NCBI GenBank assembly: GCA_038078835.1 | Contig: JBBTQI010000004.1 | Coordinates: 3,352 to 67,351, forward strand | Reading direction: 5' to 3' | DNA: 64,000 bases | DNA from: Patescibacteria group bacterium | GTDB lineage: Bacteria; Patescibacteriota; UBA1384; XYA2-FULL-43-10; 1-14-0-10-43-13 | In this document: in pieces, positions 6,437 through 54,878 of the stretch | How positions within the stretch are numbered: position 1 is the first letter of the stretch | Layout of the letters: every line of letters starts with the position of its first letter | The notes under the pieces: generated by a model | What the model was told of the DNA's origin: nothing | Databases searched by the model: none | Seen by the model: the letters and a program-made list of their open reading frames with translations, nothing else | Position numbers and translations under genes: made by a program

Positions 6437-9400
6437 TTAGACCACATTCTCTGTGCCGACAAGTTCTTTGAGTTGCTTTAGGACCACCGGAGTCGGGTGG
6501 GTTTTTTGTTTGATCTTAATTTCTTTGTAACTCGAATCGTTATTGGGAATTTTAAGAATAATGCCGGCCTCGCCCGGGTGCTTGGTGATGACATCCTTGA
6601 TATCAGCTAAGATCGACTTATCGCAACCGGCAGGCAAAATAATGGTTAGCGGTTGGCGGTTAACAGTTAGTAGTTGGGGATTTTCTGCTGAAGGCTCCGG
6701 ACTTGAGGCCGAAGGTCCAAAAGTCCGAGATTCTTGTTTTCTCTCTTGCCTTCGGCCTTCGGCCTTCGGCCTATTGCTAAAAGCTCTAGCCTTTTTGCTT
6801 CGCGGCTCGAAGGCCGGTATTGACTTGCCCTCAGAGAGCTCCCGGATCGTTTCGGCGAGGATTTTGGGAGCGCCGTCCTTAAATGAGACGTATCCGTCAA
6901 CAGCGATAATTTTGTCGGTTTGCCACGGCTCCGGATTTGCTTCAAGCACCTTGGGAAAAGCAAGAACCTCAACATTGCCGGAGAGATCCTCCATTCGGGC
7001 GAAGATCATATTCTGGTTTGAGCGCGTCATTATCTTTTGAATGGTGGTAATGATGCCGGAAACGCGGACAAACTCACCCTCAATCTCCTCTCGGATTTCA
7101 TTTAAGGATTTGTTCCGGTTTGGTTCAAGGAGGTGGCCGACACCGGAGAGGGGATGCTCGGAAACATACATTCCCAGAAGCTCGCGTTCCCAGGAGAGAC
7201 GCTGCTTGCGATCGGCCGGCTTAGTCGGCTCCAGATCGATATTGCTGATCTCGATCTCGTCTCCTTCGCCGAAAAGAGAGCTCTGGCCGGCCACCTTATT
7301 TTTCTGAAAGGTGCCGGCAAAGGAGAGAATCTTATCCATATTATAGAGAAGTTCGGCCCGCTCGCCGAGATCATCCAGCGCGCCGGCCATCACCAGGGAC
7401 TCGAGCGATTTTTTATTGATAACCTTGGGGCCCAGACGGGTAATAAAATTTTTGAGGTCGGGATAGATTCCCTCCCGCTTTCGCTCCTCGACGATTTCCT
7501 CGGCCACGGCCAGGCCGACATTTTTGATGGCGGAGAGGCCAAACCGGACATTACTCGTGTCTTTGACAACACCAAAGTCGACGAACGACTCATTGACCGA
7601 GGGGGGCAAGACTTGAATACCCATGCGCTTGCACTCTTCGATCTCCATCGCCAGCTTGTCCAGATCGTCCTTGTTTGAGGTCATAAGCGCGGACATATAC
7701 TCCGGCGGGTAATTCGACTTGAGATAAGCGGTTTGATAAGCCACAATGCCGTAGCTGGCGGCGTGGGCCTTGTTAAAACCGTAGCCGGCAAAGGTCTCGA
7801 TTTGTTGCCAGAGTTCAGTGGCAACGTGTTTCTCCATTCCGCGCTCGATGATCTGTTTAAAGAACTTCTCTTTCTGGGCGGCCATCTCGGAGACAATTTT
7901 TTTACCGATTGCTTTGCGGAACTTGTCAACCTCCTGCCAGTTGTAGCCGGCCAGCTCGATGGCGATCATTAAAACATCATCTTGATAGACGATGAGGCCG
8001 AGCGATTTATCGAGGATCTTCTCCATCCGCGGATCGGCATAGGTGATGCGAGAAGGATTGTGTTTTCTGGCAACGTATTCGGGGATGAAGGCCATTGGCC
8101 CGGGCCGGTAGAGCGCCACCATCGCCATAATATCGTGAATGGTTGTCGGACGAAGTTCCTTAATATGTTTGCGCATACCCTCGCTTTCCAGCTGGAAGAT
8201 GCCGATTGTTTCGCCGCGCGACAGAAGCTCAAAGGCCTTTTTGTCATCAAGAGGGATCTCGTCCAGTTTGATATCAAGATCATGGGTCTTTCTGATAATG
8301 CGCAAAGCATTTTTGATAATCGAGAGGTTGGCCAGGCCCAAAAAGTCCATCTTGATTAGTCCGACACCATCCTCGCCGACGGCATGCATTTCGTACTGCG
8401 TGATCAGCCGCTCGTTTTTGGTATCCATCATGACGGGAGTGAAGTTGGTAATCTCCTCCGGCGCAATGACAACGCCGGCGGCGTGAACCGAGGCGTGGCG
8501 GACGACACCCTCCAGCTTTTTGGCGATGTCAATACACTCCTTAACCTGGGCGTTGGCGGCATAGAGATCCCGCAGTTCGGCAATGTTCCTCAGAGCCTCC
8601 TTCAGGTTCTGACCAAAGGGAATCAGCTTGGCGATAGCATCAACCTCGGCATAGGTCATACCCAGAACCCGGCCGACATCGCGCACCGCCATACGGGCGG
8701 CCATCGTGCCAAAGGTGATGATCTGGGCGACGTGATCTTTGCCGTATTTGTCAGCAACGTATTGAATAATGGCATCACGGCCGGAGTCGGCAATGTCGGC
8801 ATCAATATCCGGCGCGGAGGGGCGGAAGGGGTTTAAGAACCGCTCAAAGGGGAGGTTGTAGTCAAGCGGGTTTAGCTGCTTGGGTGTGATGCCGAGAGCA
8901 TAGGAGACAAAACAGCCGGCGGCCGACCCTCTGGTGTTGGTGGGGATGCCGTTTTCCTTGGCCCAGTTAAAGAAGTCCTGGACAATAAGAAAATAACCGA
9001 GATATCCTTTTTGCTTAATAACATCAAGCTCGTACTCCAGTCTCTCCTTCATTTGCGGCGTAATCTCCCTAACTCTTTGGGGCAGTCTTTCCCCAATGAG
9101 TTTGCGGAGATAGGTCTCGTAGGTTTCGCCTTGGGGCAGGGGAAATTGGGGAAACTTAAACCTTCCCAGTTCCATTTTAAGATTACATTTTTCGGCGATC
9201 TCCAGGGTGTTGGTGATGGTCTCGGGATGGTCAGAAAAAGCGGCCATCATCTGTTCGGCGGTTTTTAGGGAGTAGTCATCATCCTTCATCGAGAGACGAT
9301 TCGTATCATTCATCGTCCGGCCGGTTTGGAGACAGACAAGAGCGTCTTGGGCGATGGCGTCATCGGGATTGACGTAGTGAGTGTCGCAGGTGGCGACGAC

Positions 9401-10027
9401 CTTTAATTTGAATTCCTCGGCCAGCTTAAAGATGAGCTCGTTGGTCGGATCTTGTTCCGGGATCGAGGGGTGTTTTTGGACCTCAAGATAGAAATCACCC
9501 GGCGCAAAGACATCGAGATACTCTTTGAGCGCTTCCCGACCCTTCTCCAGGCTTTCGCGCGCCTTGTAGGGAATTTCGCCATGAAGGCAGGCCGAGAGAC
9601 CGATGAGACCGGCGGAGTGCTTCTTGAGCGTTGCTTTGTCAACCCGCGGCTTATAGTAATAACCCTCAAGATGAGCAATTGTCGTTAATTTTAAAAGGTT
9701 TCTGTAGCCCTCATCGTTTTTAGCGATGAGAACGAGGTGGTAAGGGTTAGCATCAATCCGCGGTGTTTTGTCCTTGAGTGTCCGCGGCGCAATGTACGTT
9801 TCCACACCGATCAAGGGCTTGACACCCTGTTTCTCGCACTGTTCGTAAAACTCAATCGCCCCGTGCATCACGCCATGATCGGTGAGAGCCAGCGCCGTCT
9901 GTCCGTCCGCCTTGGCCTTTTTGACCAGATCGGGAATCTTCCCCATACCGTCCAGCATCGAAAAATGGCTGTGCACATGGAGATGAACAAATTTATCCTC
10001 ATTTTCTTTTTTTTCGTTATCAGTCAT
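6437..10027 (-). CDS. dnaE: DNA polymerase III alpha subunit (PHP domain, pol core, OB fold) with an in-frame repeat-element insertion near the C-terminus
   Basis: N-terminal FVHLHVHSHFSMLDGMGKIPDLV..LTDHG (PHP); 1196 aa; conserved DnaE core motifs throughout. Confidence 0.92.
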   Translation of the reverse strand: MTDNEKKENEDKFVHLHVHSHFSMLDGMGKIPDLVKKAKADGQTALALTDHGVMHGAIEFYEQCEKQGVKPLIGVETYIAPRTLKDKTPRIDANPYHLVLIAKNDEGYRNLLKLTTIAHLEGYYYKPRVDKATLKKHSAGLIGLSACLHGEIPYKARESLEKGREALKEYLDVFAPGDFYLEVQKHPSIPEQDPTNELIFKLAEEFKLKVVATCDTHYVNPDDAIAQDALVCLQTGRTMNDTNRLSMKDDDYSLKTAEQMMAAFSDHPETITNTLEIAEKCNLKMELGRFKFPQFPLPQGETYETYLRKLIGERLPQRVREITPQMKERLEYELDVIKQKGYLGYFLIVQDFFNWAKENGIPTNTRGSAAGCFVSYALGITPKQLNPLDYNLPFERFLNPFRPSAPDIDADIADSGRDAIIQYVADKYGKDHVAQIITFGTMAARMAVRDVGRVLGMTYAEVDAIAKLIPFGQNLKEALRNIAELRDLYAANAQVKECIDIAKKLEGVVRHASVHAAGVVIAPEEITNFTPVMMDTKNERLITQYEMHAVGEDGVGLIKMDFLGLANLSIIKNALRIIRKTHDLDIKLDEIPLDDKKAFELLSRGETIGIFQLESEGMRKHIKELRPTTIHDIMAMVALYRPGPMAFIPEYVARKHNPSRITYADPRMEKILDKSLGLIVYQDDVLMIAIELAGYNWQEVDKFRKAIGKKIVSEMAAQKEKFFKQIIERGMEKHVATELWQQIETFAGYGFNKAHAASYGIVAYQTAYLKSNYPPEYMSALMTSNKDDLDKLAMEIEECKRMGIQVLPPSVNESFVDFGVVKDTSNVRFGLSAIKNVGLAVAEEIVEERKREGIYPDLKNFITRLGPKVINKKSLESLVMAGALDDLGERAELLYNMDKILSFAGTFQKNKVAGQSSLFGEGDEIEISNIDLEPTKPADRKQRLSWERELLGMYVSEHPLSGVGHLLEPNRNKSLNEIREEIEGEFVRVSGIITTIQKIMTRSNQNMIFARMEDLSGNVEVLAFPKVLEANPEPWQTDKIIAVDGYVSFKDGAPKILAETIRELSEGKSIPAFEPRSKKARAFSNRPKAEGRRQERKQESRTFGPSASSPEPSAENPQLLTVNRQPLTIILPAGCDKSILADIKDVITKHPGEAGIILKIPNNDSSYKEIKIKQKTHPTPVVLKQLKELVGTENVV
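6687..6775. repeat. RPE-like palindromic heptamer-repeat element (arms GAGGCCGAAGGTCC / GCCTTCGGCCTTCGGCCTTCGGCC) inserted in frame in dnaE
   Basis: Three tandem GCCTTCG units plus an inverted partner arm; the same family recurs at 11052, 36416, 61942, 12132 and 33818. Confidence 0.6.
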
Positions 10028-10349: not shown

Positions 10350-11738
10350 ATGCTGAAACCAGACAACAAATATTTTTTTGTTTTGGGGCGGGAGCGGGAG
10401 ATTGCCCGGGAGGAGCTGAGGGCGGTTTTGCGCCGCCTTAATTTTGGTTTTGGTGATTTAAATGTAACCGATAATATCGCCTTTGCCAATCTTGACAGGG
10501 ACGAGGCAGAGGTGGCGAAGTTAAGCGGGATATTGGGGGGGACTACAAAGATATTCAGGGCAACCCAATCAAAAATGGACAACGAACAATACGAACAACG
10601 GACAACGGACAGAGAATATTGTTCCAAGTTGATTGCAGGGTTAACTGCCGAGTTGATACGGCGGAAGAAACGGGGTGTGACGGGTAAGATTAACTTCGGA
10701 ATTTCCGATTATTCTAAAACCTTATCCAAGGAAAAGATTAATACCTTGGGATTAGAGGTAAAGCGTGCCTTGAGAGGTGATTTATCTCTCCGCTTTGTGC
10801 CAATTCGAGAAGGCCGGGAACTCTCAACCATCCAATCACTCAAAGGTGACCTTGCCGGCCGAGGGGTTGAGGTTGGTTTATTCGATCAAGGAATCGGTAT
10901 TTTGATTGGTCTGTCAAATCCGGAGGAGTGGGCGCGGCGAGATTACCAAAAGCCGGCCGGGGACAAGTATTCCGGCATGACGCCACCCAAGTTGGCGAGG
11001 ATGATGATCAATTTAGCTTTAAGCCAAAGGCCTAAGGCCGGAAGCAGAAAAGTCGAAGGCCGAAGGCCGAAGGTCGGAGGCCGGATCGGAACTGCCTTCA
11101 GCCTTCAGCCTTCGGCTTGCGTCGTGGTTGATCCCTTTTGCGGTTCGGGAAATATCTTAATGGAAGCCTTGATGCTGGGATGCGATATGATCGGGTCAGA
11201 CATAAGCGAGAAGGCAGTGGCTGATTCAAAAGCCAATGTTGATTGGCTGCTCGAGCAAATCCGAAATTCTAAATCCGAAATCCTAAACAAATCCGAAATC
11301 CAAAATTCAAATGTCAAAATATTTCAAGCTGATGCGACAGAATTAGATTTCCCCCCTCTATTTGAAAATTACGATCACTTTGTGGTCGTTACAGAGCCCT
11401 ACCTTGGTCAACCCAAGAAGATGAAACCGAGTTTCAATGCTGTAAGGGGTGAGTACACTAAGATCAAAAAGTTATATTTAGACTTCTTAAAAAACTTAGC
11501 ACTTTCACACTTTCACACTTTCACACTCTGCCTTGTTTTTCCTCTCGTTGAGAGTGTCGATCGGGGTCGATTTAGCCTTTATGCCGAGTCTGTTGACGAA
11601 ATCAGGAAATTGGGCTATACTGAACTACGTTCACCGCTTGTGTACGGCAGAGACTATCAGGTGGTGAAGAGGGAAATAGTCTTTCTCAATTTCCAAGAAC
11701 CAAATACCAAATCACAAATAAATTCCAATAGCCAATAA
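10350..11738 (+). CDS. class I SAM-dependent RNA methyltransferase (Trm11/COG1041-like, DPFCGSG motif) carrying four distinct in-frame repeat insertions
   Basis: N-terminus KYFFVLGREREIAREELRAVL and ..VVVDPFCGSGNILMEAL...GSDIS.. match the Trm11-like family; start chosen at ATG 10350. Confidence 0.6.
   Translation: MLKPDNKYFFVLGREREIAREELRAVLRRLNFGFGDLNVTDNIAFANLDRDEAEVAKLSGILGGTTKIFRATQSKMDNEQYEQRTTDREYCSKLIAGLTAELIRRKKRGVTGKINFGISDYSKTLSKEKINTLGLEVKRALRGDLSLRFVPIREGRELSTIQSLKGDLAGRGVEVGLFDQGIGILIGLSNPEEWARRDYQKPAGDKYSGMTPPKLARMMINLALSQRPKAGSRKVEGRRPKVGGRIGTAFSLQPSACVVVDPFCGSGNILMEALMLGCDMIGSDISEKAVADSKANVDWLLEQIRNSKSEILNKSEIQNSNVKIFQADATELDFPPLFENYDHFVVVTEPYLGQPKKMKPSFNAVRGEYTKIKKLYLDFLKNLALSHFHTFTLCLVFPLVESVDRGRFSLYAESVDEIRKLGYTELRSPLVYGRDYQVVKREIVFLNFQEPNTKSQINSNSQ
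11052..11116. repeat. palindromic heptamer-repeat element (GTCGAAGGCCGAAGGCCGAAGGTCGGAGGCCGG ...loop... GCCTTCAGCCTTCAGCCTTCGGC), in frame inside the methyltransferase gene
   Basis: About 24 bp imperfect inverted arms of GGCCGAA-type heptamers separated by a 9 nt loop. Confidence 0.6.
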
Positions 11739-12112: not shown

Positions 12113-12240
12113 CGATGCTAATTTACCCGTCTCGGCCTTCGGCTGAGCCAAGGTCGGACGAATGCATGTAAATGACGCGAATAAAAAATTAGTATCATTC
12201 GCATAATAATTCGCAATATCCGCATCGGATTTAGGTACTT

Positions 12241-13232: not shown

Positions 13233-13366
13233 ACATTAATCGTAAATAGCGTATACATTGACTTCCGATCGGAAGTCAATGTATACATAATTCTACTGTC
13301 TAATATACCGGGGACTCAACAAAATAAGGGGGAGACAGGGGAAGAATGTTTTGCTATTGTAAAGCT

Positions 13367-14812
13367 ATGATACGAACACGATTTGCGCCGAGCCCAACGG
13401 GGGAACTTCACATCGGCGGTGCTCGCACCGCTCTCTTTTCTTATCTCTTTGCCAAGCATCACGGCGGCGAGTTTCTGCTGCGGATTGAGGACACCGATCG
13501 GGAGAGGCTGGTGGAGGGAGCAACAATCCGCATCATCGAGTCGCTTGAATGGCTGGGGCTCTTTCCGGATAACTACCACAGTATCGTTATCCAATCTGAT
13601 AGGCAGGAGATCTATAAAAAATATGCCCTGGAATTGGTGTCAAAGGGGGCGGCTTATCTTTGTACCTGTTCAAAGGAGCGGCTCGAGGAGTTGCGGCGGG
13701 AGCAGGAGGCAAAGAAATTGCCGCCACAGTATGATAGACATTGTAGGAACGTCAAATGTCAAAATCATACCCCCCCTACACCCCCCCTTTCTAAGGGGGG
13801 GGTTGAGAGGGGGTTAGAAGAACTATTAAAGGAGGGGGCGGTGGTTAGGTTGAAGATGCCGGAGACGGGGAGCATTGTTGTTGTTGATTTGATTCGGGGT
13901 AATGTCGAGTTTAGGGCAGATCTTCAGGATGATCCGGTTTTGCTCAAATCCGACGGCTGGCCGACATACCATCTGGCGGCGGTGGTCGATGATCACGAAA
14001 TGGAGATCAGCCACGTCATCCGGGCGGAGGAGTGGCTCTCCTCGACGCCCAAACACCTTACTTTGTATCAAGCATTCGGTTGGGCGGTGCCGCAATTTGC
14101 TCATCTGCCAATGATTTTGGGTCCGGACCGGAGCAAGCTCTCCAAGCGCCACGGCGCCACGGCGGTGCTGGATTATAAAAACCGGGGGTATCTGCCTCAC
14201 GCCATCATTAACTTTATCGCCCTTTTGGGCTGGAGTCCCAAGGATGAGCGGGAGGAGTTCAGCTTGGCTCAACTCATTCGGGATTTCCGGCTCGAACAGG
14301 TGAACCGGGCGCCGGCTGTTTTTAACATTGATAAATTAAACAGCATAAATGCCCGCTACATCCAAAAACGGGATCCCGGCAAACTAAAGCAGGAATTGGC
14401 CGAGTTTGGCCCGAGAGAGCCGCTGGCGGGGGAGATTACCCTGGCCCAGCGAGGCGGATATGCGACATTGGCCGAAATCAAAGAGGCAATTGAAGGTCTG
14501 CGGCAGAAACCAGTGTATAAGGCCGCCTTGCTCGTTTTTAAGAAATCGGATAAGCCCAAAACTCTCAAGGGTTTGCGGCTCGCCCGTCAAAAATTGGCGG
14601 GAGCCAATATCTGGAGCGCGGAGGAGCTGCAAAACGTCCTCGTCGAGGTGGTAAACGATCACAATCTCTCTAGCGGCGATGTTTTTTGGCCGGTGCGTGT
14701 TGCCTTATCGGGCCGGGAAAAGTCGCCCTCGCCGGCGGAACTATTGGTGGCACTAGATCGAGTTGAATCACTTAGACGGATCGACGCGGCGTTGGAAAAA
14801 CTGCAAGGATAG
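13367..14812 (+). CDS. gltX: glutamyl-tRNA synthetase, with an in-frame C7/G8 palindromic homopolymer insertion
   Basis: MIRTRFAPSPTGELHIGGARTALF..HHGGEFLLRIEDTD.. (HIGH region) and KLSKRHG (KMSKS). Confidence 0.92.
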   Translation: MIRTRFAPSPTGELHIGGARTALFSYLFAKHHGGEFLLRIEDTDRERLVEGATIRIIESLEWLGLFPDNYHSIVIQSDRQEIYKKYALELVSKGAAYLCTCSKERLEELRREQEAKKLPPQYDRHCRNVKCQNHTPPTPPLSKGGVERGLEELLKEGAVVRLKMPETGSIVVVDLIRGNVEFRADLQDDPVLLKSDGWPTYHLAAVVDDHEMEISHVIRAEEWLSSTPKHLTLYQAFGWAVPQFAHLPMILGPDRSKLSKRHGATAVLDYKNRGYLPHAIINFIALLGWSPKDEREEFSLAQLIRDFRLEQVNRAPAVFNIDKLNSINARYIQKRDPGKLKQELAEFGPREPLAGEITLAQRGGYATLAEIKEAIEGLRQKPVYKAALLVFKKSDKPKTLKGLRLARQKLAGANIWSAEELQNVLVEVVNDHNLSSGDVFWPVRVALSGREKSPSPAELLVALDRVESLRRIDAALEKLQG

Positions 14813-14829: not shown

Positions 14830-15963
14830 ATGCACTCCAATCAAGGGCGAAAAATTAAGGTTGTCCAGGTGATCGCTGACTCAGCCCCGGGCGGCGGTCC
14901 CAGTCATGTTTTGGGTCTCCTAAAGCATCTCGACAAACAGCGTTTTGAGTGTTTTTTAATTTGCCCGTCGGGCTATCTGGCCAGGGAGGCCAAAAAGATA
15001 GCGGCGGTTGAAGTAATTAACCTCCCTTTTCGTTCCAAGTTTGATCTCTGGTCGCTCTGGCAATTTAATCGGATATTGCAGCAAATCAGGGTTAAAGGTG
15101 ATCCGTTCGGTTCGATGATTGTTCACAGCCATGGTTCACGGGCCGGCCTGGCGGCCCGCTGGCGGCGCCTGACCTTGGTTAAGTATATCTACACCGAGCA
15201 TCGCTTTGATGCCGATTTTCATCTTAAAAATTCTTTAAACGAGAAAGTTCAACTTTGGCTGTTGGGAGTACTCAATCATAAAACGGATTGGATAGTAGCT
15301 GTTTCCACATCGGTGGCTAATTTTTTACTGAAAAACAATTTGGCTCCGCCGGGTCGTCTGACTGTTATTCCCAACGCAATCGAGGCGGAGAGAATTAAGC
15401 CGCCCAATCTCCATTCATTCGCTAAAGCGCCGGTTATCGGCACGATCGGCAATCTCAACACCCAAAAGGGCCACTGCTACTTGATCAAGGCCTTTGATTT
15501 ATTGTCGCAAAAATATCCGGAGTCGAGATTAGAGATTGTCGGCGGAGGAGATCAGGAGGACAATATCAAATATCAAATATCAAATATCAAAAATAAGAAA
15601 GGAATTACTTTGTTGGGGAGGCGGGAGGAGCCGGAAAAATTTCTGAAAAAGTGGGATGTGTTTGTTTTGCCCTCGGTTGCCGAAGCTTTTGGCATTGTAC
15701 TTCTGGAGGCGATGGCCGCCGGTGTGCCGATCGTTGCCGCCAATGTTGGCGGTATTCCCGATATCATTGAGAACAATAAAAATGGCGTTCTGGTGCCGCC
15801 GCGGCAGCCGGAGGCCCTGGCTAAAGCAATAGGCGAGATACTTGACAATCAGGCAAAAGCGAGAGAACTCTCGCGGAGGGGGTTAGCAAGGGTTCAAGTT
15901 TTCACTTGGCCCAAGATCATTTCCAGGTTCCATAATCTCTACTTTGACACTCTTGCTGGATGA
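14830..15963 (+). CDS. glycosyltransferase family 1 (GT4-type retaining glycosyltransferase) with an in-frame (ATATCAA)x4 repeat
   Basis: C-terminal ..VFVLPSVAEAFGIVLLEAMAAGVPIVAANVGGIPDII.. is the Glycos_transf_1 signature. Confidence 0.75.
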   Translation: MHSNQGRKIKVVQVIADSAPGGGPSHVLGLLKHLDKQRFECFLICPSGYLAREAKKIAAVEVINLPFRSKFDLWSLWQFNRILQQIRVKGDPFGSMIVHSHGSRAGLAARWRRLTLVKYIYTEHRFDADFHLKNSLNEKVQLWLLGVLNHKTDWIVAVSTSVANFLLKNNLAPPGRLTVIPNAIEAERIKPPNLHSFAKAPVIGTIGNLNTQKGHCYLIKAFDLLSQKYPESRLEIVGGGDQEDNIKYQISNIKNKKGITLLGRREEPEKFLKKWDVFVLPSVAEAFGIVLLEAMAAGVPIVAANVGGIPDIIENNKNGVLVPPRQPEALAKAIGEILDNQAKARELSRRGLARVQVFTWPKIISRFHNLYFDTLAG

Positions 15964-29047: not shown

Positions 29048-31723
29048 CTAATCTTTAGTAACGCGCCAGATCTCTTCGAGGGAGGTCAGTCCTTTGGAGG
29101 CCTTTAGTATGCCGTCTTGAATCATTGTGACCATACCGTTCTCGACGGCCGCTTCCTGAATTTTGGAGGCGGAGACTTTTTGGATGACCAGGCTTTTTAT
29201 CTCCTCGGTAATGCCTAAAACCTCAAATAAGCCGACTCGGCCCCGATAGCCGGTATCCTCGCAAACTTTACACCCCTTGCTTTTGCTGAATTTGGTTTCA
29301 TGATCTCTAAACAACTTCTTCTCATTCTCCGGCATCCTCTCGATGATTTCATTTACCCTTTGCATCTCAATATCGCCGGGTTTGTACTCCTGCCGACATT
29401 CGTCGCAAAGACGCCGGGCGAGGCGTTGGGCAATAATAATGTTTGTTGATGACGTCAACAGGAAAGGTTCGACGCCCATATCGATTAAGCGCGGCGCCGC
29501 GCCGGCCGCATCATTGGTGTGCAGGGTGGAGAGAACGATATGACCGGTTAGGGCTGACTGTACTGCCATCTCTGCCGTTTCTCCGTCGCGAATCTCGCCG
29601 ATCATAATTATGTCGGGATCCTGGCGCACAATCGAGCGTAAACCGGAAGCAAAGGTGTAGTTGATTTCCGGATTGACCTGGCTTTGATTAACGCCGGGCA
29701 TTTGATATTCAATCGGGTCCTCGAGGGTAACGATATTAACACCCTCATGGAAGAGGCGATCGATTAAGGCGTAAAGCGTTGTCGTTTTGCCGGAGCCGGT
29801 TGGGCCGGTCACCAGAATCATTCCGTGAGATCGATCGAGGTTTGCCTCAAGATTTTTTAGGCCGATTCCGTCCAGTCCGAGTTGCTCGATGGTCAATATA
29901 CCCTGAGACTTATCCAGGAGGCGCATCACAACTTTTTCGCCGTAAGCAGTAGGCATGGTCGAGACGCGAAAGTCAACTCTGCGGGTATCTATATTAATAC
30001 TGAAGCGGCCATCTTGAGGAACTCTTTGTTCATCAATTTTGAGCTCTGAAAGAATCTTGATGCGAGAAACAACTGCCAGCTGTACATCTTTCGGCAGGGC
30101 GACCTTCTTGCGAAGCACGCCATCAACGCGAAAGCGAACAGTTACCTCGCCCTCAAGCGGCTCAATGTGGATATCGGAGGCTTTGTCGCGAATTGCTCGT
30201 CTGAGGAGAGAGGTGACGATACGGGCCGCCGGCGCGTCGTCAGAGGCCGACTCCATTAGCGCTTTGGTTACCTCTTCCTTTTTCTCTCCCCCCTCCTCAT
30301 TAACTTCTTCGATCGCTTTTTCAACTTCAGATTCGAGGCCCTGATATTGGTCCAGGATATGACTCAAGTCGCTCTCAGTCGTTATCTTTGTTACCAGCGG
30401 CATCTGAGCATTTTTCTTGATTATCTCTTTGGCTTCAATATCCTCGGGATCGATCATGGCGATTACAAGCTTGTTCTCTTCGCGCGCCACCGGAACCGTC
30501 TTGTAGCGTCTGGCAATCTTTTCCGGAATCAGTTGGAGAATTTCTTTTGGCACGGTTGTCTTAGACAGGTCAATATAGGAGATTTCCGATTTCGGCATAG
30601 GAAAGGGTCCCATCTCAGAGCTAACAAGCATTTTTTCAATTCCAGGAACACCGGTTTTGCTTACCGGGGATGTTGTGTCGCTTTGGCCTGGTTTTGTCTC
30701 AGTCTCAATTTTTGCCGCATTTTTATTGTCTTTTTCGTTTTTCGCCCCGGCAACTTCGCCGTTTTGTTTTGCGGGCAGTTGAGGCAGAAGTTCGGCCGGT
30801 ATGGGACCATTTTGCTGATGGGGCGCTGAGGCGGGAATTTGCGCCCGGCTTGTATCAAGGGGGTTAGAACTTTTCACGTCAAAAAAGCCTTCCCCGATGG
30901 TCGAGCCCTTCTCTTCCGGTTTGGGGACGATCGGGTGATCCTTTGGTTTATTTTCAACTGATTTAGCTGTCTCCTTTACGGGTGGCGGAGCTTCAACCTT
31001 GATTGTTTCTTCCTCTTTTTTCTCCAACTTTTTCTTGGCTGATTCTTCGCCTTCTTTTTCCGCCGGGCCGAAGATCCGTGCCCAAAAAGATTGGCGATCT
31101 TTTTTCGGAACCCGAATGACGCCATTAAAAGTTGATTCCTCTTTTGTGCCGTCGCCCATCAACTCCTCGTAGATACTAATCCGCTCACTATCTTTTTCTG
31201 CCGCCCGAACGGCGCCGGTTGACTTTCCTTTATCCAGGGAGGACTCTTTCTTTTCTTTCTTGGGTGTCGGAGGCAGGAGGGAGGCCTGATCTTTTGAGTG
31301 GTTCACTATAATAGGAATGGCAATATTGTTTTTGGCCGGCACATTTTTATCTTGCCCCAGAACAACCGATGTGTTGGCGGGTTTTGTTAACTGCCGGTTC
31401 TTTTTGCGGGTGCCGTGGAGAGTAATTCCCTCGACGCTCCGGCCGGTTTTCACTGCCTGTTTGATGTTGTCTGCCGGCATCCATTTAGCGACATTTGTCG
31501 GCAACATGATCATCTTTTTGGCCTTGCCCAATTTGGGATGGGTGATCACCCGGGAGGGATAATGAACAGTATAAAAAGTGCCAAAGTTGGAGTAAATTAC
31601 TTTGTCACTTTTATCTAGAGCACCGGTGATTGTTTCTTCAAGCGCAACAATTAAATCTTCCGCTTGAGCAATAGTCAAACGAACCTTTTTGGCCACTATG
31701 CGAGCCAACTCTTTGCGTGTCAC
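29048..31723 (-). CDS. pilB: PilB/GspE-family pilus extension ATPase (T2SSE_N + Walker A GPTGSGKTTT + Asp/His boxes) fused in frame to an N-terminal HU/IHF-like DNA-binding domain via an ~450 aa low-complexity K/E/P-rich linker; GTG start with GGAGGGG RBS
   Basis: N-terminal MTRKELARIVAKKVRLTIAQAEDLIVALEETITGAL..GDKV....FGTF is the HU/IHF fold; C-terminal ILVTGPTGSGKTTTLYAL...GEIRD.ETA is GspE; one uninterrupted ORF. Confidence 0.8.
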   Translation of the reverse strand: MTRKELARIVAKKVRLTIAQAEDLIVALEETITGALDKSDKVIYSNFGTFYTVHYPSRVITHPKLGKAKKMIMLPTNVAKWMPADNIKQAVKTGRSVEGITLHGTRKKNRQLTKPANTSVVLGQDKNVPAKNNIAIPIIVNHSKDQASLLPPTPKKEKKESSLDKGKSTGAVRAAEKDSERISIYEELMGDGTKEESTFNGVIRVPKKDRQSFWARIFGPAEKEGEESAKKKLEKKEEETIKVEAPPPVKETAKSVENKPKDHPIVPKPEEKGSTIGEGFFDVKSSNPLDTSRAQIPASAPHQQNGPIPAELLPQLPAKQNGEVAGAKNEKDNKNAAKIETETKPGQSDTTSPVSKTGVPGIEKMLVSSEMGPFPMPKSEISYIDLSKTTVPKEILQLIPEKIARRYKTVPVAREENKLVIAMIDPEDIEAKEIIKKNAQMPLVTKITTESDLSHILDQYQGLESEVEKAIEEVNEEGGEKKEEVTKALMESASDDAPAARIVTSLLRRAIRDKASDIHIEPLEGEVTVRFRVDGVLRKKVALPKDVQLAVVSRIKILSELKIDEQRVPQDGRFSINIDTRRVDFRVSTMPTAYGEKVVMRLLDKSQGILTIEQLGLDGIGLKNLEANLDRSHGMILVTGPTGSGKTTTLYALIDRLFHEGVNIVTLEDPIEYQMPGVNQSQVNPEINYTFASGLRSIVRQDPDIIMIGEIRDGETAEMAVQSALTGHIVLSTLHTNDAAGAAPRLIDMGVEPFLLTSSTNIIIAQRLARRLCDECRQEYKPGDIEMQRVNEIIERMPENEKKLFRDHETKFSKSKGCKVCEDTGYRGRVGLFEVLGITEEIKSLVIQKVSASKIQEAAVENGMVTMIQDGILKASKGLTSLEEIWRVTKD

Positions 31724-32190
31724 TATCCCCTCCAAGCAATTTTCTGCCGCTTTGTTTAATTGTATCACTATTAACCAAAAAGAAACAAGGCACAACTTAA
31801 CCGGTCCGGTCGGGAACGGATAGCTTGCCTGGTTGGACTGTGTGTAACTATGTGGACAGAGTGTGGACAAGATCGGGCAATTTTAACCGGTCAGCAATGT
31901 TATCATCGCCAGAACTTATAAAGTTGATAAAGTTTTCGAGGTGTGGCCAATGCCGATATAATACAATTAGCTCACCTTACGCACCAGAGAACAAACTTTA
32001 GTTTGTTAGGATAAAATATACTTTCTGCGTGCCAGCCCTGCTTTCACGTGCTAAAGCGTGGTCTCTGAGTGGTGCGTAAGGTGACACAGTTAATTCAAAT
32101 GTTAGATGTCAGAAGCCAAATTTACATCAAGGATTTTTGGTCTGTGTCTTTGTCTTTGACATTTAACATTTAATTTTTGACTTAACCGTG

Positions 32191-33786
32191 ATGTCTTTTT
32201 ACCAAAAATATCGTCCGCAAAAGTTCGCCGATCTGGTGGGGCAGGATCATATCAGTCAAACCCTTCGGGAGTCAATCAAGAGGGACTGTTTAACTCATGC
32301 CTATCTTCTGACCGGCCCCCGCGGTATTGGCAAGACCACAACAGCGCGCCTCTTAGCCAAAGCAATTAATTGCCGGGACTCAACTGACCGGGCCAAGAGC
32401 GGCGAACCCTGCAATCAATGTGATTACTGCGTATCGATAAGCGGCGGTCGGGCCTTGGATGTTATTGAGATTGATGCCGCGTCTCACACAAGTGTTGACG
32501 ACATTCGGGACCTGATCGAAAAGGCTCGGCTGGCGCCGGCCAGTGCCAGAAAAAAAGTCTATATTATTGATGAGGTTCATATGCTCTCCAAGAGCGCTTT
32601 TAATGCCCTGCTCAAAACACTGGAGGAGCCGCCCCCCCATGTTGTTTTTATCCTGGCGACAACCGAAGTCCAGCGTTTGCCGGAGACGATCCTGTCCCGG
32701 ACTCAACGCTATGATTTTCGCCGGGCCAGCCAGAGTGATATTATAGCCAACTTGAAGCGGGTGGCGGCGGCAGAGGACATTGCGGTCGATACTGAGTCGC
32801 TCGAAATTCTGGCCGTGTTGGCTCGCGGAGCACAGCGTGATGCCGTTGGCTTGCTGGAGCAGGTCGCCGGCTACACAAATCAAATTACGATTGCAAGCAC
32901 CAGGGCAATTCTTGGGCTATCAAGCCAAGAGGAGACCTTTTCTTACTTGCGAGCTGTTTTTAATAACTTGACGGAGGAGGGATTAAAAATTGCTCATCGG
33001 CTCTACGATCAGGGAAGCGATATGGCCGTCTTTTATGCTGATGTTCTGGAGTTGCTCCGAAAAATCCTCCTGTATCGAGCCAGCGGTGAAGTGCTCTTTG
33101 AGGAGACCGAATCCAACGTGAAAAAGATCAAGGAACTGGGCGGTCGCGTCGCGACGGCAAATTTGATCAAGGCGGTCGGGTGCTTTATTGCTAACAGCAA
33201 ACTTCTCAAAGAGGTGTCTAACCCAGTCTTGCCGCTCGAGATGGCGACAGTGGAGGCGGCGCAGTTTTTCTCGGAACCCGGAACTCAGAATATCGAACTC
33301 AGATCGAACTCAGAACGAACTCAGAACACAGGGGCCGAAAAGAAGGAGACCAAATTGGAAACCCGGGCTCCAAGCGCCAAGTCTCGGACTCCTGAGCCGG
33401 CGATTCCGGATCCGGGAACGGCGGTAGACGAGAGTGTGGTGAAATCTCCTGCTCCGACACCGGTTTTAGAGATGACCGATGATCTTTGGTTGAGGCTTAC
33501 CCAAGCGGTTAAAGAGAAAAATTCAACACTGGCGGCCCTCTTGCGTGATGCCAAGCCGATTGAGGTTAGTCAGAAGAAGATGGTGCTGGGTGTTAAATTC
33601 CCCTTTCATCGGGATCGGATTTCGGACGCTAAGAATCGCCAAGTGTTGGAGAGTATTTTAAAGGATGCTGTCGGTGCGGAGTATCATCTGGAGTGCCGCT
33701 TAGTTGCGCCGGAGAAAAGAAAGTCGACCAAGACGGATGACCTTAATCTGGAGAAAGCGGTAGGGGAGGTGTTTGAGACGGAATAG
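32191..33786 (+). CDS. dnaX: DNA polymerase III subunit gamma/tau, with an in-frame (CGAACTCAGA)x4 repeat
   Basis: MSFYQKYRPQKFADLVGQDHI...LLTGPRGIGKTTTARLLAKAINC (AAA+ clamp loader, zinc module CxxC). Confidence 0.88.
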   Translation: MSFYQKYRPQKFADLVGQDHISQTLRESIKRDCLTHAYLLTGPRGIGKTTTARLLAKAINCRDSTDRAKSGEPCNQCDYCVSISGGRALDVIEIDAASHTSVDDIRDLIEKARLAPASARKKVYIIDEVHMLSKSAFNALLKTLEEPPPHVVFILATTEVQRLPETILSRTQRYDFRRASQSDIIANLKRVAAAEDIAVDTESLEILAVLARGAQRDAVGLLEQVAGYTNQITIASTRAILGLSSQEETFSYLRAVFNNLTEEGLKIAHRLYDQGSDMAVFYADVLELLRKILLYRASGEVLFEETESNVKKIKELGGRVATANLIKAVGCFIANSKLLKEVSNPVLPLEMATVEAAQFFSEPGTQNIELRSNSERTQNTGAEKKETKLETRAPSAKSRTPEPAIPDPGTAVDESVVKSPAPTPVLEMTDDLWLRLTQAVKEKNSTLAALLRDAKPIEVSQKKMVLGVKFPFHRDRISDAKNRQVLESILKDAVGAEYHLECRLVAPEKRKSTKTDDLNLEKAVGEVFETE

Positions 33787-33891
33787 TTAAATCTTTCGCG
33801 GGAAATTAAATCACATATTCGGCCTTCGGCTGATTATCTGTGAGGCGAAGCTTTTGACTTACTATTCATAATTTCACGGTAGGGGAGTTGA

Positions 33892-35387: not shown

Positions 35388-36536
35388 ATGAAAAAATTGG
35401 TTTTAATTGATTCCAATGCCATTATCCATCGGGCATATCATGCCCTGCCGGCAAACCTCTCAAACTCCAAGGGCGAGCCGACCAATGTTACCTATGGTTT
35501 TGCCCTGGCCCTCATTAAAATCCTTGAGGAGATCAAGCCGGATTACATCGCCGCCGCCTTTGATCTGGCTGGCCCGACCTTCCGGCACATTGAATATAAA
35601 GAATATAAGGCCAAGCGGGTCAAAGCCCCTCAGGAGCTCTACGATCAGATTCCCAGAGTCAAGGAGATGCTTTCGGTTTTCGGCGTGCCCATTTATGCTG
35701 TGGCGGGATTCGAGGCTGATGATGTGATTGGAACGATTGTAGAACAGTGTAAGGATGGGGACACAATGGTCTATATCGCTTCAGGTGACCGTGATGTCTA
35801 TCAATTGTTAAATGGTCATGTTAGGGTTTTAATGCTTCATCGTGGCTTTTCGGAAGCGGAGATTTTTGACCACGACCACCTGCGGGAGAAATATAACTTA
35901 GACCCGGAGGACTTTATCGATCTCAAGGCCTTGATGGGCGATGCATCCGATAATATCCCCGGTGTGCCGGGAATTGGACCGAAAACTGCCACGGACTTGA
36001 TACAAAAATTTGATACGTTAGAAAAGCTTTATGTTGCTCTAGATTGTCATTCTGAACCCATTCGACAAGCTCAGGGCAAGCTCCGCGAAGAATCTAGCGG
36101 AGTGTCCGATGCGGTCGCCAAAGGCGACCTAGATCCTTCGGCTACGCCTCAGGATGACAGCGGTAAAAGATTGAGTGACACATATATTAAAGAAACCTCT
36201 AAACGGTTGGGTATCAAGGAAAGAATAGTGCGATTACTATGCCAACACGAAAACCAGGCTTTTCAGTCGAAGATGCTGGCTACTATCCGGCGAGATGTGC
36301 CGATTGAGTTTGATCTGGCCAAGGCCCGCTGGGGGCAGTATGATAAGGACAAAGTCCGCCGATTATTCGAAGAGCTGGAGTTCAAGTCATTGCTGAGAAG
36401 ATTTTCCAAGGATTATGAAGAGGCCGAAGGCCCAAGGCCTGTCCTGAGCGGAGTCGAAGGGCCGAAGGCTGAAGATGAGAAAAAGATCACCGAAGAGCAA
36501 AAGAAAAAAGATGAGCAGTTGAAGTTAGAATTATAA
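35388..36536 (+). CDS. polA: DNA polymerase I 5'-3' exonuclease domain (FEN-like) - first of two polA pieces; ends in a low-complexity tail containing GGCCGAA-type repeats
   Basis: MKKLVLIDSNAIIHRAYHALP....IAAAFD...FRHIEYKEYKAKR.. and LEFKSLLRRF match the PolA N-terminal nuclease. Confidence 0.8.
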   Translation: MKKLVLIDSNAIIHRAYHALPANLSNSKGEPTNVTYGFALALIKILEEIKPDYIAAAFDLAGPTFRHIEYKEYKAKRVKAPQELYDQIPRVKEMLSVFGVPIYAVAGFEADDVIGTIVEQCKDGDTMVYIASGDRDVYQLLNGHVRVLMLHRGFSEAEIFDHDHLREKYNLDPEDFIDLKALMGDASDNIPGVPGIGPKTATDLIQKFDTLEKLYVALDCHSEPIRQAQGKLREESSGVSDAVAKGDLDPSATPQDDSGKRLSDTYIKETSKRLGIKERIVRLLCQHENQAFQSKMLATIRRDVPIEFDLAKARWGQYDKDKVRRLFEELEFKSLLRRFSKDYEEAEGPRPVLSGVEGPKAEDEKKITEEQKKKDEQLKLEL

Positions 36537-36965: not shown

Positions 36966-37256
36966 ATGAAAAAGATGAAGACAATCATTAATATTAAAAC
37001 TGATGCAGAGACAAAGAAAAAGGCTCAGGAACTGGCTAATGAGCTTGGCGTGCCTCTGAGTACTGTTATCAATGTTTATTTGCGCCAGTTTATCCGAACA
37101 CGCGAATTTTCCTTCTCCCTGGCTTATTCGATGAGCCCCAAACTGGAAAAGATTATCGCCGAAGCGGAGAGAGACATAGCTGAAGACAAAAATCTTTCTC
37201 CGACTTTTACTAAAGCTGACGAGGCGATCAACTGGCTAAAGAATGCCAAGGGATGA
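36966..37256 (+). CDS. RelB/DinJ-family (ribbon-helix-helix) type II antitoxin
   Basis: ..INIKTDAETKKKAQELANELGVPLSTVINVYLRQFIRTREFSF.. matches DinJ/RelB; 4 nt overlap with the downstream toxin. Confidence 0.7.
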   Translation: MKKMKTIINIKTDAETKKKAQELANELGVPLSTVINVYLRQFIRTREFSFSLAYSMSPKLEKIIAEAERDIAEDKNLSPTFTKADEAINWLKNAKG

Positions 37257-37513
37257 AAGTTCGTTTTCGTAAAAGTTTTTCCAAAGATTTTGCTTGTCTC
37301 GACTCAAAAATTAGTCACGCTTTTGAAATGCGGCTGAAGGTTTTTTTTCAAAATCCTTATGATGCCAAATTGAGTAATCATCCTCTAAAAGGAAGATGGC
37401 AAGGCTATCGCAGCATTAATATTTCCGGCGACTTTCGGGCGGTTTATAAAGAAATTGATGATGAAACAGTCATTTTTGCGGCCATCGGCAGCCACAGTCA
37501 ACTTTATGGCTAA
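37253..37513 (+). CDS. RelE/ParE-superfamily (YafQ-like) type II toxin
   Basis: ..LKGRWQGYRSINISGDFRAVYKEIDDETVIFAAIGSHSQLYG matches YafQ/RelE. Confidence 0.7.
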   Translation: MKVRFRKSFSKDFACLDSKISHAFEMRLKVFFQNPYDAKLSNHPLKGRWQGYRSINISGDFRAVYKEIDDETVIFAAIGSHSQLYG

Positions 37514-38820
37514 TGGGTTGGTTATCTGTTATGTGGTCACATCTTAAGGAAAAGGGTGTGGTTTTGCCCAAAATAACGGCGGAGGAGATCTCCAAAAAGG
37601 TGGAGCCGGTTTTGCGTGAGATGGAGAGAGTTGGCGTGATGATCGATGCTTCGATTCTTGAGGGGCTAGAAGATAAACTCGAGACTCGGATATCGAAACT
37701 CGAAACTAAAGTACATAGGTTGGCGGGCCGGGAGTTTAACATCAATTCACCGCTGCAGCTGGCAGAGGTGTTGTTTCGAGATCTTCGTTTACCCTCAACC
37801 GATCTCAAACGGACCAAGACGGGCGTCTCCACGGCGGCGGGCGAACTGTTAAAGCTTAAAAGCCGCCATCCGATTATCGAGCCGATCCTGGAGTATCGGG
37901 AATTAGCTAAGCTGGTCTCAACATATTTAAAGCCCCTGCCCCGGATGGTTGATGCCGACTCCCGGATTCACACCACCTACGGCCAGGAGACCTCGACCGG
38001 CCGCATCACCTCGGCCAACCCGAATCTGCAGAACATCCCCATCAAGGGGGAATACGGCCCGGAGATCCGGCGGGCTTTTGTGGCGGCGCCGGGATGCAAG
38101 CTGGTGGCAGGGGATTACTCTCAGATTGAGTTGAGGATTGTGGCTTGCCTGGCCCAGGACAAGACAATGATGGCGGCTTTTGCCGGCGGCGAAGATATTC
38201 ACGCCCAAACTGCCTCGGAGATATTTAATGTGCCGCTAAATAGAGTCACTTCGGATCAGCGCCGGGTAGCCAAGACCGTTAACTTTGGTGTTCTCTATGG
38301 TATGAGCGCTTATGGCCTCGCACAGGCGCTGGGCATCTCGCGCGAACAGGCGGCTGATTATATTAAACGCTACTTTGAGATTCATGAAGGTATTAAAAAG
38401 TATTGCCATGATGTTATTGCCAAGGTCGCTAAGGATAAGTACACTGAGACTCTCTTTGGCTTCCGCCGGTCATTTGAAAACTTTAACCGCTACAATCACA
38501 ATTTGGTTGAGGCGGAGGAGCGGATGGCGATCAATGCGCCGGTTCAGGGGACAGCGGCGGAGATTCTCAAATTGGCGATGGTTGAATTGATCAAGAAACT
38601 GAAGGAAGTCCCTCACCCCAACCCTCTCCCTGCAGACAGGGCGAGGGAGTCTGCAAGGTTGATATTGACGGTGCATGATGAGATCGTTGTCGAGGTGCCG
38701 GCAAGGTCTGCGGAAGAGATGGCAAGACTTGTTAAAGAGACAATGGAGAGCGTGGTAAAATTATGTGTTCCGCTCAAGGCGGAGGTTGGTATCGGTCGGA
38801 ATTGGGCGGAAACTAAATAG
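37513..38820 (+). CDS. polA: DNA polymerase I polymerase (palm/fingers/thumb) domain - second polA piece; start ATG 37513 (overlaps the toxin stop, TAATG) or 37531; contains an in-frame palindromic insert
   Basis: ..DYSQIELRIVA.. (motif A), ..RRVAKTVNFGVLYG.. (motif B), ..VHDEIVVEV.. (motif C). Confidence 0.8.
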   Translation: MGWLSVMWSHLKEKGVVLPKITAEEISKKVEPVLREMERVGVMIDASILEGLEDKLETRISKLETKVHRLAGREFNINSPLQLAEVLFRDLRLPSTDLKRTKTGVSTAAGELLKLKSRHPIIEPILEYRELAKLVSTYLKPLPRMVDADSRIHTTYGQETSTGRITSANPNLQNIPIKGEYGPEIRRAFVAAPGCKLVAGDYSQIELRIVACLAQDKTMMAAFAGGEDIHAQTASEIFNVPLNRVTSDQRRVAKTVNFGVLYGMSAYGLAQALGISREQAADYIKRYFEIHEGIKKYCHDVIAKVAKDKYTETLFGFRRSFENFNRYNHNLVEAEERMAINAPVQGTAAEILKLAMVELIKKLKEVPHPNPLPADRARESARLILTVHDEIVVEVPARSAEEMARLVKETMESVVKLCVPLKAEVGIGRNWAETK

Positions 38821-38880
38821 AGTACTAAGTGTGAAAGTGAATACCGTCCCCTTTCACACTTAGTACTTTCACACTTTCAC
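38821..38880 (+). terminator. 17 bp perfect hairpin (AGTACTAAGTGTGAAAG...CTTTCACACTTAGTACT) followed by TTTCACAC heptamer repeats, immediately after polA
   Basis: Perfect inverted repeat 38821-38837 / 38851-38867; the heptamer TTCACAC also occurs in frame in the methyltransferase gene (11500-11530). Confidence 0.4.
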
Positions 38881-38891
38881 ACTTGTAAACC

Positions 38892-52103: not shown

Positions 52104-52190
52104 AAAGCTTGAAACCTGAAACTTGAAACCTGAAGAGATAAAGTTTCAAATATTAAGCTACAAGTTTCAAGTTTCAGGTTTTAACTATTT
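52104..52190 (+). terminator. long imperfect inverted repeat built from GAAACYTGAAAC units after ftsK (hairpin/terminator-like)
   Basis: CTTGAAACCTGAAACTTGAAACCTGAAG ... CAAGTTTCAAGTTTCAGGTTTT. Confidence 0.4.
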
Positions 52191-54695: not shown

Positions 54696-54878
54696 ATCAA
54701 TAAATCCTAAATCCTAATTTCTAAATCCTAAAGAAATCCAAATGTTCAAATTCCTAAACTTTAAAAAACCTTTGGTTATTGGAAATTGTTTAGGATTTAG
54801 TGCTTGGAATTTAGGGTTTTAACTGTTTATCATTTTGCATTTTGACTTTTGCATTTTGATTTAATACTAGGAGGGTTT

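Follow-up and report, generated by a model that had tools for sequence, protein, structure and literature searches.

Heptanucleotide repeat arrays in a Patescibacteria genome: GGCCGAA palindromes in dnaE and other genes as probable members of a wider simple-sequence repeat population

Short repeats built from the heptamer GGCCGAA are dispersed over a 64,000-nucleotide (nt) stretch of Patescibacteria contig JBBTQI010000004.1 (hereafter the window), and several of them lie within housekeeping genes, including dnaE, which encodes the alpha subunit of DNA polymerase III. An earlier interpretation made from the letters alone (the sequence-only reading) took these repeats for selfish palindromes comparable to the Rickettsia palindromic elements (RPEs), inserted in frame into essential genes. 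The locus thus raises the question of whether the repeats are discrete elements or members of something broader. Our analysis indicates that the GGCCGAA sites are probably part of a genome-wide population of heptanucleotide simple-sequence repeats, similar to the short tandemly repeated repetitive (STRR) sequences, which is tolerated in permissive protein segments. The arrays are not discrete mobile elements of the RPE, miniature inverted-repeat transposable element (MITE) or repetitive extragenic palindrome (REP) type, and their likeness to RPEs is one of outcome only.

All sequences quoted in the sequence-only reading are present where it placed them, and the genome does contain dispersed copies of a potentially palindromic repeat that lie in frame within housekeeping genes, at insertion-tolerant sites. 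GGCCGAA was found 30 times on the two strands of the window, compared to 14.1 ± 3.7 times in dinucleotide shuffles, none of which (0/100) reached 30. Perfect tandem runs are restricted to three sites, 6748-6772 (3.6 units), 11054-11073 (2.9 units) and 61942-61960 (2.7 units). The unit is open in all six frames, reading RPKAEGR from one strand and PSAFGLR from the other, and is therefore simply translated in permissive segments. The recurring peptides are cyclic permutations of these two sequences only, as forced by the 7-nt period, and no longer peptide is common to the sites. Likewise, an all-versus-all blastn comparison of the six GGCCGAA sites and their flanks, with the heptamers masked, gave a best match of 9 nt (E = 0.4). 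The reading frame is intact in every coding copy, and the in-frame continuation of the conserved domains downstream in dnaE and in the methyltransferase, exonuclease and DUF2130 genes shows that translation passes through these copies.

The window contains many units besides GGCCGAA. It has eight exact period-7 runs with a length of 17 nt or more, while shuffles predict 0.1; periods 5, 6 and 9 gave none and period 8 gave three. Tandem Repeats Finder and a scan for exact runs together identified approximately 27 period-7 arrays with about 18 distinct units, such as AATATCA, GGACAAC, AAATCCG, GGTTAGC, TGAAACC, CATTTTG and CATAGAA; eight of these arrays, spread across six loci, are of the GGCCGAA type. 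Arrays are preferentially intergenic, with 13 of the 27 in or at the edge of the non-coding 9% of the window, which corresponds to an approximately 10-fold higher density than in coding DNA. An AAATCCK unit is present at three places (11257, 54701 and 54771). Furthermore, two intergenic hairpins share the inverted-arm architecture of the GGCCGAA-like elements while consisting of units unrelated to GGCCGAA: one after ftsK (52109-52184), where (TGAAACC)n is followed by (AAGTTTC)n with 89% complementary arms (fold z = -5.25 relative to shuffles, as for all z-scores given here), and one after recX (54702-54819), where (TAAATCC)n is followed by (GGATTTA)n with 49-nt arms (z = -4.6).

The host is a groundwater member of the Patescibacteria that resembles the Berkelbacteria. 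Relatives of its DnaE protein (gene at 6437-10027, minus strand) with 50 to 79% identity are mostly named Candidatus Berkelbacteria. The arm read first in dnaE is a perfect (GGCCGAA)x3.6 run (6748-6772, minus strand; 100% matches in Tandem Repeats Finder) encoding RPKAEGRRQ at amino acids (aa) 1086-1094. It pairs with a degenerate complementary arm (6687-6720, minus strand), which consists of about five GCYGAAG-like units on the plus strand and encodes FGPSASSPEPSA (aa 1103-1114). The two arms yield the peptide SNRPKAEGRRQERKQE, in agreement with the translation given previously, and RNA of positions 6680-6780 is predicted to fold with -39 kcal/mol (z = -4.0). A separate (GGTTAGC)x3.9 array in the same linker, identified by Tandem Repeats Finder (6644-6670, minus strand), encodes LTVNRQPLT (aa 1120-1128).

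These three arrays map to DnaE residues 1079-1123, which connect the OB fold to a small C-terminal domain and form the longest segment with a predicted local distance difference test (pLDDT) score below 50 (31 to 36) in an AlphaFold2 model with a mean of 83.9. In 61 orthologues the linker is 13 to 68 aa long, unalignable and mostly rich in N, G and S. As the linker is present in all relatives, with a length in the same class, the repeat fills an existing linker and adds no segment. Peptides that are diagnostic of other heptamer arrays (WQLAVS, NIKYQIS, TEYRVPS...LGTRNSE) were found in approximately six orthologues; among them, the linker of P0002 (P0xxx numbers denote individual proteins, and L numbers, i.e., L001, L002, L003, L092, L115 and L119, denote DNA stretches of other assemblies) contains WQLAVS/QPTANS peptides related to the GGTTAGC array. 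The domain that follows the linker (aa 1127-1196, positions 6437-6650) is a conserved alpha/beta C-terminal domain of about 70 aa in Berkelbacteria, with a predicted pLDDT of 83 to 90 and no Pfam match.

The second coding hairpin lies in a class-I methyltransferase gene. Pfam domains confirm the assignments of dnaE, this methyltransferase (weak N6_N4_Mtase/UPF0020 matches), the stand-alone 5'-3' exonuclease, DUF2130, L27 and dnaX. The earlier designation of the methyltransferase as Trm11-like rests solely on the Joint Genome Institute (JGI) name of some homologues. The left arm belongs to a (GCCGAAG)x8.6 array (11023-11083, plus strand; perfect core at 11054-11073) encoding SQRPKAGSRKVEGRRPKVGGR at aa 225-245 of P0123. 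The right arm, (GCCTTCA)x2.9 plus GCCTTCGGC (11094-11121, plus strand), encodes AFSLQPS; each of its units has a single C.A mismatch when paired with the left arm. The element folds with -54.5 kcal/mol (z = -4.4); its arms are 28 nt long (11054-11081 and 11094-11121), 79% complementary and separated by 12 nt. Identity is 100% within the arms and complementarity between them is 79 to 86%, with GCCGAAG facing GCCTTCA.

Three further arrays were detected in the same gene, all on the plus strand: (GGACAAC)x4.7 at 10577-10611, encoding MDNEQYEQRTTDR (aa 76-88; pLDDT of about 68), an AAATCCG/AAATCCT array at 11257-11306, encoding QIRNSKSEILNKSEIQN (aa 303-319), and (ACCAAAT)x3.1 at 11699-11720, encoding EPNTKSQI in the C-terminal tail at low pLDDT. 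The structural model has an overall pLDDT of 89 and a predicted template modeling (pTM) score of 0.90, and the array segments (aa 76-88, 225-255, 303-319 and 450-457) are low-confidence coils, with pLDDT values of 43 to 54 in the region of the aa 225-255 loop. Three of these segments coincide with regions of variable length in an alignment of 76 orthologues, from 0 to 38 aa at aa 76-88, from 0 to about 50 aa at aa 225-255 and from 0 to 27 aa at aa 303-319. The loop preceding motif I (VVDPFCGSGN) spans 33 aa in the window compared to 16 repeat-free aa in the close relative L001, and in many orthologues this loop contains other hairpin-type peptides, e.g., the AAATCCG-type NPKSEILNPK...SDLDIRDLDF.

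The population is also represented by another assembly, a contig from Hainich H43, whose identity to the window is 99.97% across 12.6 kb. The two assemblies differ at four positions in the 12.6 kb compared, all within 300 nt of the methyltransferase gene (10544-10842 versus L119 5385-5683), and in the L119 allele the open reading frame (ORF) is broken and called as pieces of 181 and 192 aa, representing either a pseudogenised allele or low-coverage errors. A repeat-induced frameshift was considered for the 192-aa fragment and rejected, as the four clustered point differences lie elsewhere in the gene and array length is unchanged.

The remaining two coding copies are direct arrays. The 5'-3' exonuclease has its copy in the variable C-terminal tail (36416-36475, plus strand, encoding YEEAEGPRPVLSGVEGPKAED); this is a degenerate GGCCGAA/GCTGAAG array that folds only weakly (z = -2.6). 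This tail (RRFSK to EQKKKD) is hypervariable among orthologues. P0127 (68% identity) has an orthologous decayed GCYGAAG array, which is seen in the L115 DNA, and P0126 has none; the window tail is longer than that of P0126 and shares its extension with P0127. About 12 exonuclease orthologues carry KSEIRNSNIETNSKSQI in the tail. In DUF2130, a direct (AAGGCCG)x3.3 array (61942-61964, plus strand; Tandem Repeats Finder) in the N-terminal coiled-coil region encodes KAEGRRQN. The KAEGRRQ peptide was thus confirmed, while neither a hairpin (z = +0.1) nor an insertion is present. Distant orthologues read KKAEE(S/G) at this position with unchanged length, and the copy is therefore not an insertion. 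A representative with 62% identity reads RAEGTRLKAEGRGR; KAEGRGR is found there in this orthologue. For this site, the result is of the kind that the sequence-only reading had named as speaking against an inserted repeat.

Other in-frame palindromes accompany these genes. A segment of approximately 120 nt in the H3TH domain of the exonuclease (36045-36165; TGTCATTCTGA...TCAGGATGACA, z = -3.5, one copy in the window) encodes HSEPIRQAQGKLREESS...DPSATPQDDSGKR at a position where most orthologues have 0 to 30 aa. Related peptides (QAQGKLREES, DPSA(V/T)PQDD) occur in P0126, P0166 and several methyltransferase orthologues, and this palindrome may belong to a dispersed palindromic family that resembles RPEs or MITEs more closely than the heptamers do. 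In glutamyl-tRNA synthetase (GluRS), an in-frame C7/G8 palindrome at 13769-13814 (ACCCCCCCTACACCCCCCCTTT / AAGGGGGGGGTTGAGAGGGGGT) encodes PPTPPLSKGGVERG, an insert of about 17 aa that is absent from five relatives; in the same loop, L003 has an AAATCCG-type heptamer peptide. Given the H3TH and GluRS inserts, tolerance of repeat-derived inserts looks like a general trait of the lineage. The polA functions are split in this genome, with the 5'-3' exonuclease gene at 35388-36536, a DNA_pol_A-only gene at 37513-38820 and a RelB/YafQ toxin-antitoxin pair between them (36966-37513); in L115, an Apyc1-like metallo-beta-lactamase gene occupies the place of this pair.

Is the family then a genuine RPE or another MITE family, inserted by transposition? 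In-frame copies in housekeeping genes, two of them palindromic, would fit this explanation. However, the window shows neither a consensus of about 150 bp nor a conserved encoded peptide beyond the 7-aa period, the DUF2130 copy is no insertion and the DnaE linker pre-exists in all relatives. Moreover, the host is a Patescibacterium, and no parent insertion sequence or transposase was found in the window: Pfam scans of its approximately 66 ORFs detected no transposase, REP-associated tyrosine transposase (RAYT) or reverse transcriptase. With a consensus that does not extend beyond the 7-mer, some 18 units, a distribution over many phyla and no mobility genes in the window, the claim of a discrete RPE-like selfish element was not sustained, and we regard transposition of this kind as very improbable.

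The two intergenic GGCCGAA sites bear on a different possibility, that of selection for structure. As proposed earlier, small hairpins are present after rpmA, the gene with the L27 domain (12132-12157, plus strand; 1.5 to 2 GGCCGAA-type units; z = -3.0), and after dnaX (33818-33833, plus strand; z = -3.4). Each site is a two-unit mini-hairpin, and both contain the exact 15-mer TCGGCCTTCGGCTGA, for which 0.17 matches would be expected. If such hairpins acted at the RNA or DNA level, as mRNA stabilisers, terminators, translation pauses or protein-binding sites, or if the charged peptides were functional linkers, the elements could be under selection. Four window elements indeed fold far beyond their shuffles (z = -4.0 to -5.25), as do the L002 elements (z = -5.2 to -5.4); intergenic hairpins lie directly downstream of rpmA, dnaX, ftsK and recX, and KAE(E/G) is conserved in DUF2130. 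However, inverted repeats give high fold z-scores by construction, and half of the arrays have no inverted partner. No T tract of the kind found in terminators follows the 12132-12157 hairpin, none of the intergenic hairpins fits the stem-plus-T-tract pattern of intrinsic terminators, and a search of Rfam matched four tRNAs and none of the arrays or hairpins. Furthermore, none of the sites shows sequence conservation among orthologues, arrays are missing entirely from the close relative L001, and the encoded peptides fall in low-confidence, length-variable segments. Selected structure is therefore an improbable explanation.

Comparison with relatives and with other genomes agrees better with a repeat population than with a single element. 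At the sites of the coding arrays, orthologues carry other units or nothing. In L002, GAGTACC arrays are found in dnaE and the methyltransferase gene, and AAATCCG-type peptides occur in many exonuclease and methyltransferase orthologues. Hexapeptides compatible with a 7-nt period are present in 53 of 120 exonuclease and 59 of 120 methyltransferase orthologues, compared to 7.7 and 11.6 in shuffles. Outside the lineage, a scan of one genome per species found (GGCCGAA)3 in 111 stretches, with matches on up to eight contigs in some metagenome-assembled genomes; the hosts include Acidobacteriota, Verrucomicrobiota, Myxococcota, Planctomycetota, Actinomycetota, Chloroflexota, Bacteroidota, Pseudomonadota and even one archaeon. 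These loci (806 kb in total; 110 are from other phyla) contain 235 period-7 runs versus 38 of period 6 and 8 of period 8. Ninety-two of the 235 runs consist of other units, foremost AAATCCG, which is also present in the window, L002 and L003. The motif thus does recur, but as a generic heptameric simple-sequence repeat and not as a lineage-specific mobile palindrome. In a myxococcal stretch (L092, 1285-2073), (TTCGGCC)n and (GCCTTCT)n blocks split by TTGTT form a satellite of about 800 nt, far larger than any array in the window.

These observations are consistent with a simple sequence of events. Units of 7 nt would expand locally by replication slippage, some arrays would turn into inverted pairs, probably via inverted duplication or template switching, to give hairpins, and point mutation would then erode them. 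Local expansion is suggested by perfect runs that adjoin decayed units. The dnaE hairpin combines a perfect arm of 3.6 units with a decayed one, which fits expansion within one arm followed by decay. As the methyltransferase arms are internally perfect and differ at one fixed position per unit, they argue for arm-local expansion and decay and not for selection on pairing or a single insertion. The arms of the hairpin after ftsK mirror each other including internal unit variants, which points to inverted duplication of an existing array. Arrays persist where harm is small, i.e., in intergenic spacers and, within genes, in disordered, length-variable linkers, loops and tails. There, stop-free arrays are translated and supply sequence for the fast-evolving linkers of DnaE, the methyltransferase, the 5'-3' exonuclease and other proteins. 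Self-pairing of arms, such as a GGCC...GGCC mini-hairpin, was considered as a general driver of slippage and discarded; DNA folds are weak and non-significant for GGCCGAA, and there are none for AAATCCG and AATATCA.

Several results weigh against this slippage-based explanation. One unit family dominates per genome (8 of 27 arrays are of the GGCCGAA type here and 4 of 9 of the GAGTACC type in L002), for which independent slippage gives no account. A stop-codon filter is too weak to cause the choice of unit, as 590 of 1,170 unit classes are open on both strands. Since AAATCCG, AATATCA and GGCCGAA recur across genomes and phyla and the stop filter is weak, further bias or copying is needed. Array density in the same syntenic region ranges from 0 to 0.5 per kb among Berkelbacteria, and such patchiness among close relatives suggests a genome-specific factor. 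The period of 7 itself has no account under slippage. Array length does not differ between the two assemblies that are 99.97% identical over 12.6 kb, and no unit-number variants were found in 90% protein clusters, which hold the window's own proteins only.

The L002 elements are particularly difficult to reconcile with independent slippage. Its dnaE and methyltransferase elements, 4.5 kb apart, have an identical 26-nt left arm, CAAGTACC(GAGTACC)2GAGT, and GGAACTN units, each with one A.A mismatch, make up the right arm at both loci. The loops are unrelated, and the one in the methyltransferase element consists of conserved coding sequence of the host (44 nt). Arms that agree at two loci down to the mismatch, around unrelated loops, are predicted neither by independent slippage nor by insertion of a unitary hairpin. 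Copying from array to array might account for them.

Whole arms may accordingly have spread between loci by a process other than slippage, such as ectopic gene conversion, templated patch insertion during repair or the action of a mobilising enzyme, with each genome gaining its own dominant unit. This is the closest defensible form of the selfish-element idea. Apart from the L002 arms, it would explain why 8 of the approximately 27 arrays are of GGCCGAA type, a figure far from random given the 1,170 possible unit classes, why an exact 15-mer occurs at two intergenic sites, and why the same protein loops are repeatedly hit by differing palindromic sequences; the uneven density among relatives would be expected if a factor were active in some genomes only. 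However, the window copies have no common loop, terminus or flank. The host-derived loop of the L002 methyltransferase element indicates that this hairpin did not come as a single unit, and genes for a transposase, a RAYT or a reverse transcriptase are absent from the 64 kb. A search of 241 million metagenome records for perfect two-unit inverted GGCCGAA arms gave no match, and a looser pattern gave one. Common descent of a mobile element is also implausible for units shared by unrelated phyla. Copying of arms is thus the less likely explanation, but it is retained as a serious minority possibility because unit dominance, the L002 arms, patchy density and the lack of length polymorphism misfit simple slippage.

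Overall, we favour a population of heptanucleotide repeats that is tolerated in permissive segments as the explanation of the GGCCGAA sites. A more far-reaching version may be entertained only tentatively: an active process would write genome-specific 7-nt arrays into many loci, often as imperfect inverted arms, and copy arms between loci; it would be patchily distributed in Berkelbacteria and several other phyla, and selection would retain stop-free arrays in disordered loops. If this were true, heptamer arrays would be a major source of the linkers and loops of essential proteins in these reduced genomes.

Additional heptamer arrays in the window, all detected by Tandem Repeats Finder, were found both within genes and between them. 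A perfect (AATATCA)x4.3 array in a GT4 glycosyltransferase gene (15562-15591, plus strand) encodes NIKYQISNIK, and its NIKYQIS peptide recurs in the linker of the DnaE protein P0019 and in P0257, a methyltransferase. The DNA_pol_A gene has an (AAACTCG)x4.7 array (37675-37707, plus strand) that encodes KLETRISKLET close to the N-terminus of the protein. A (CATTTTG)x4.7 array (54831-54862) lies just upstream of the ppdK start and overlaps it, (CATAGAA)x3.3 (61710-61732) is intergenic upstream of DUF2130, and a degenerate (AATTGAT)x8.6 array occupies an intergenic region at 844-901.

Repeats of other periods are also present. The three exact period-8 runs (0 expected) are accompanied by octamer arrays of one unit at two places, CACTTTCA x3.5 in the methyltransferase gene (11500-11527) and ACTTTCAC x2.5 in an intergenic region (38821-38884), the latter adjoining a perfect 17-nt inverted repeat (38821-38867). 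In dnaX, an 11-mer array, CGAACTCAGAA x3.1 (33270-33331), encodes SEPGTQNIELRSNSERTQNTG in the linker from domain III to the C-terminal domain. A perfect 36-nt palindrome, GTATACATTGACTTCCGA|TCGGAAGTCAATGTATAC, occupies the spacer upstream of gltX (13251-13286). Among the other genes of the window, one at 29048-31870 (minus strand), adjoining pilC/M/N/O-like genes, encodes a 940-aa secretion ATPase of the PilB/T2SSE type with an N-terminal HU-like Bac_DNA_binding domain (aa 50-141), an unusual fusion. An alanine racemase ORF of 233 aa (58076-58777, minus strand) comprises the final third of the N-terminal domain and the C-terminal domain and may be truncated or frameshifted.

What looked like a selfish element in essential genes is thereby assigned to the broader class of bacterial heptamer repeats, whose mechanism is still without explanation. 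In the candidate phyla radiation, such repeats are translated, and proteins of core replication and RNA modification owe hypervariable linkers and loops to them. We found no literature on heptamer or simple-sequence repeats in this radiation or in coding regions of essential genes. For annotation, this implies that repeats are the origin of low-complexity inserts and of differences in length among Patescibacteria proteins, and the result also bears on marker-gene alignments and phylogenies. The difference in density among close relatives provides a comparative handle on the factor responsible, and the arrays bear on why a period of 7 is favoured and why unit families are genome-specific.

Among the known repeat systems, REPs are extragenic palindromes of 20 to 40 bp with a family consensus and a linked RAYT gene. 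REP and REPIN sequences resemble the window elements in being short, hairpin-forming, dispersed, abundant and often downstream of genes; they differ from them in that the window has no RAYT/Y1 transposase, intragenic copies and tandem-array arms of no fixed sequence. MITEs have terminal inverted repeats, are flanked by a target-site duplication and are related to an autonomous insertion sequence or a transposase, whereas, judged from arm structure and gene content, the arms described here are tandem arrays without fixed termini and no transposase is encoded among the approximately 66 window ORFs. Phase-variable contingency tracts, e.g., the heptanucleotide repeats of Haemophilus, switch surface or restriction genes on and off by frameshifting. 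Like the window arrays, they are short tandem units in or upstream of genes that are potentially variable by slippage. However, the window tracts comprise 2.7 to 4.7 units in housekeeping genes, are fixed in frame and show no length variation between the two assemblies.

RPEs, families of about 150 bp in which both the consensus and the encoded peptide are conserved (PMC10969869), share with the window elements the occurrence of in-frame palindromes in unrelated housekeeping genes at fold-compatible positions, adding a surface or linker peptide. In contrast, the window elements share a 7-nt unit only, measure 15 to 100 nt, are built from many units, include copies that are no insertions and reside in an unrelated host. 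Closer counterparts are heptamers of other bacteria. Heptameric simple-sequence repeats are over-represented in many bacteria, according to the account of Mrazek et al. 2007 given in PMC4692102, and the same source describes STRR heptamers in Calothrix and inverted heptamer arrays in Xanthomonas and hypothesises a polymerase-slippage footprint as the origin of the 7-nt period. The GGGAATC and GGGGA(T/C)T heptamers of Xanthomonas and Nostoc (PMC4692102) are, like the window arrays, mostly intergenic, in some cases inverted and capable of forming stem-loops, and variable in length and sequence at given intergenic positions between close relatives. However, they are G-rich, G-quadruplex-forming and described as intergenic, whereas the window units do not form G-quadruplexes and also occupy coding loops.

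The closest likeness is to the STRR sequences of heterocystous cyanobacteria (Calothrix/Nostoc), which also consist of short tandem 7-nt arrays of several unit families at many dispersed loci, with a strong period-7 excess, intergenic enrichment and differences in sequence and length between relatives. In contrast to the STRR sequences, the arrays described here occur in a small-genome Patescibacterium and use GGCCGAA, AAATCCG, AATATCA and other units; about half of them lie in genes, including dnaE, where they are translated in frame, and many form inverted arms. Heptamer excess, STRR sequences and inverted arrays were thus already known, and the setting in this study is a Patescibacterium in which stop-free arrays are translated as protein linkers.

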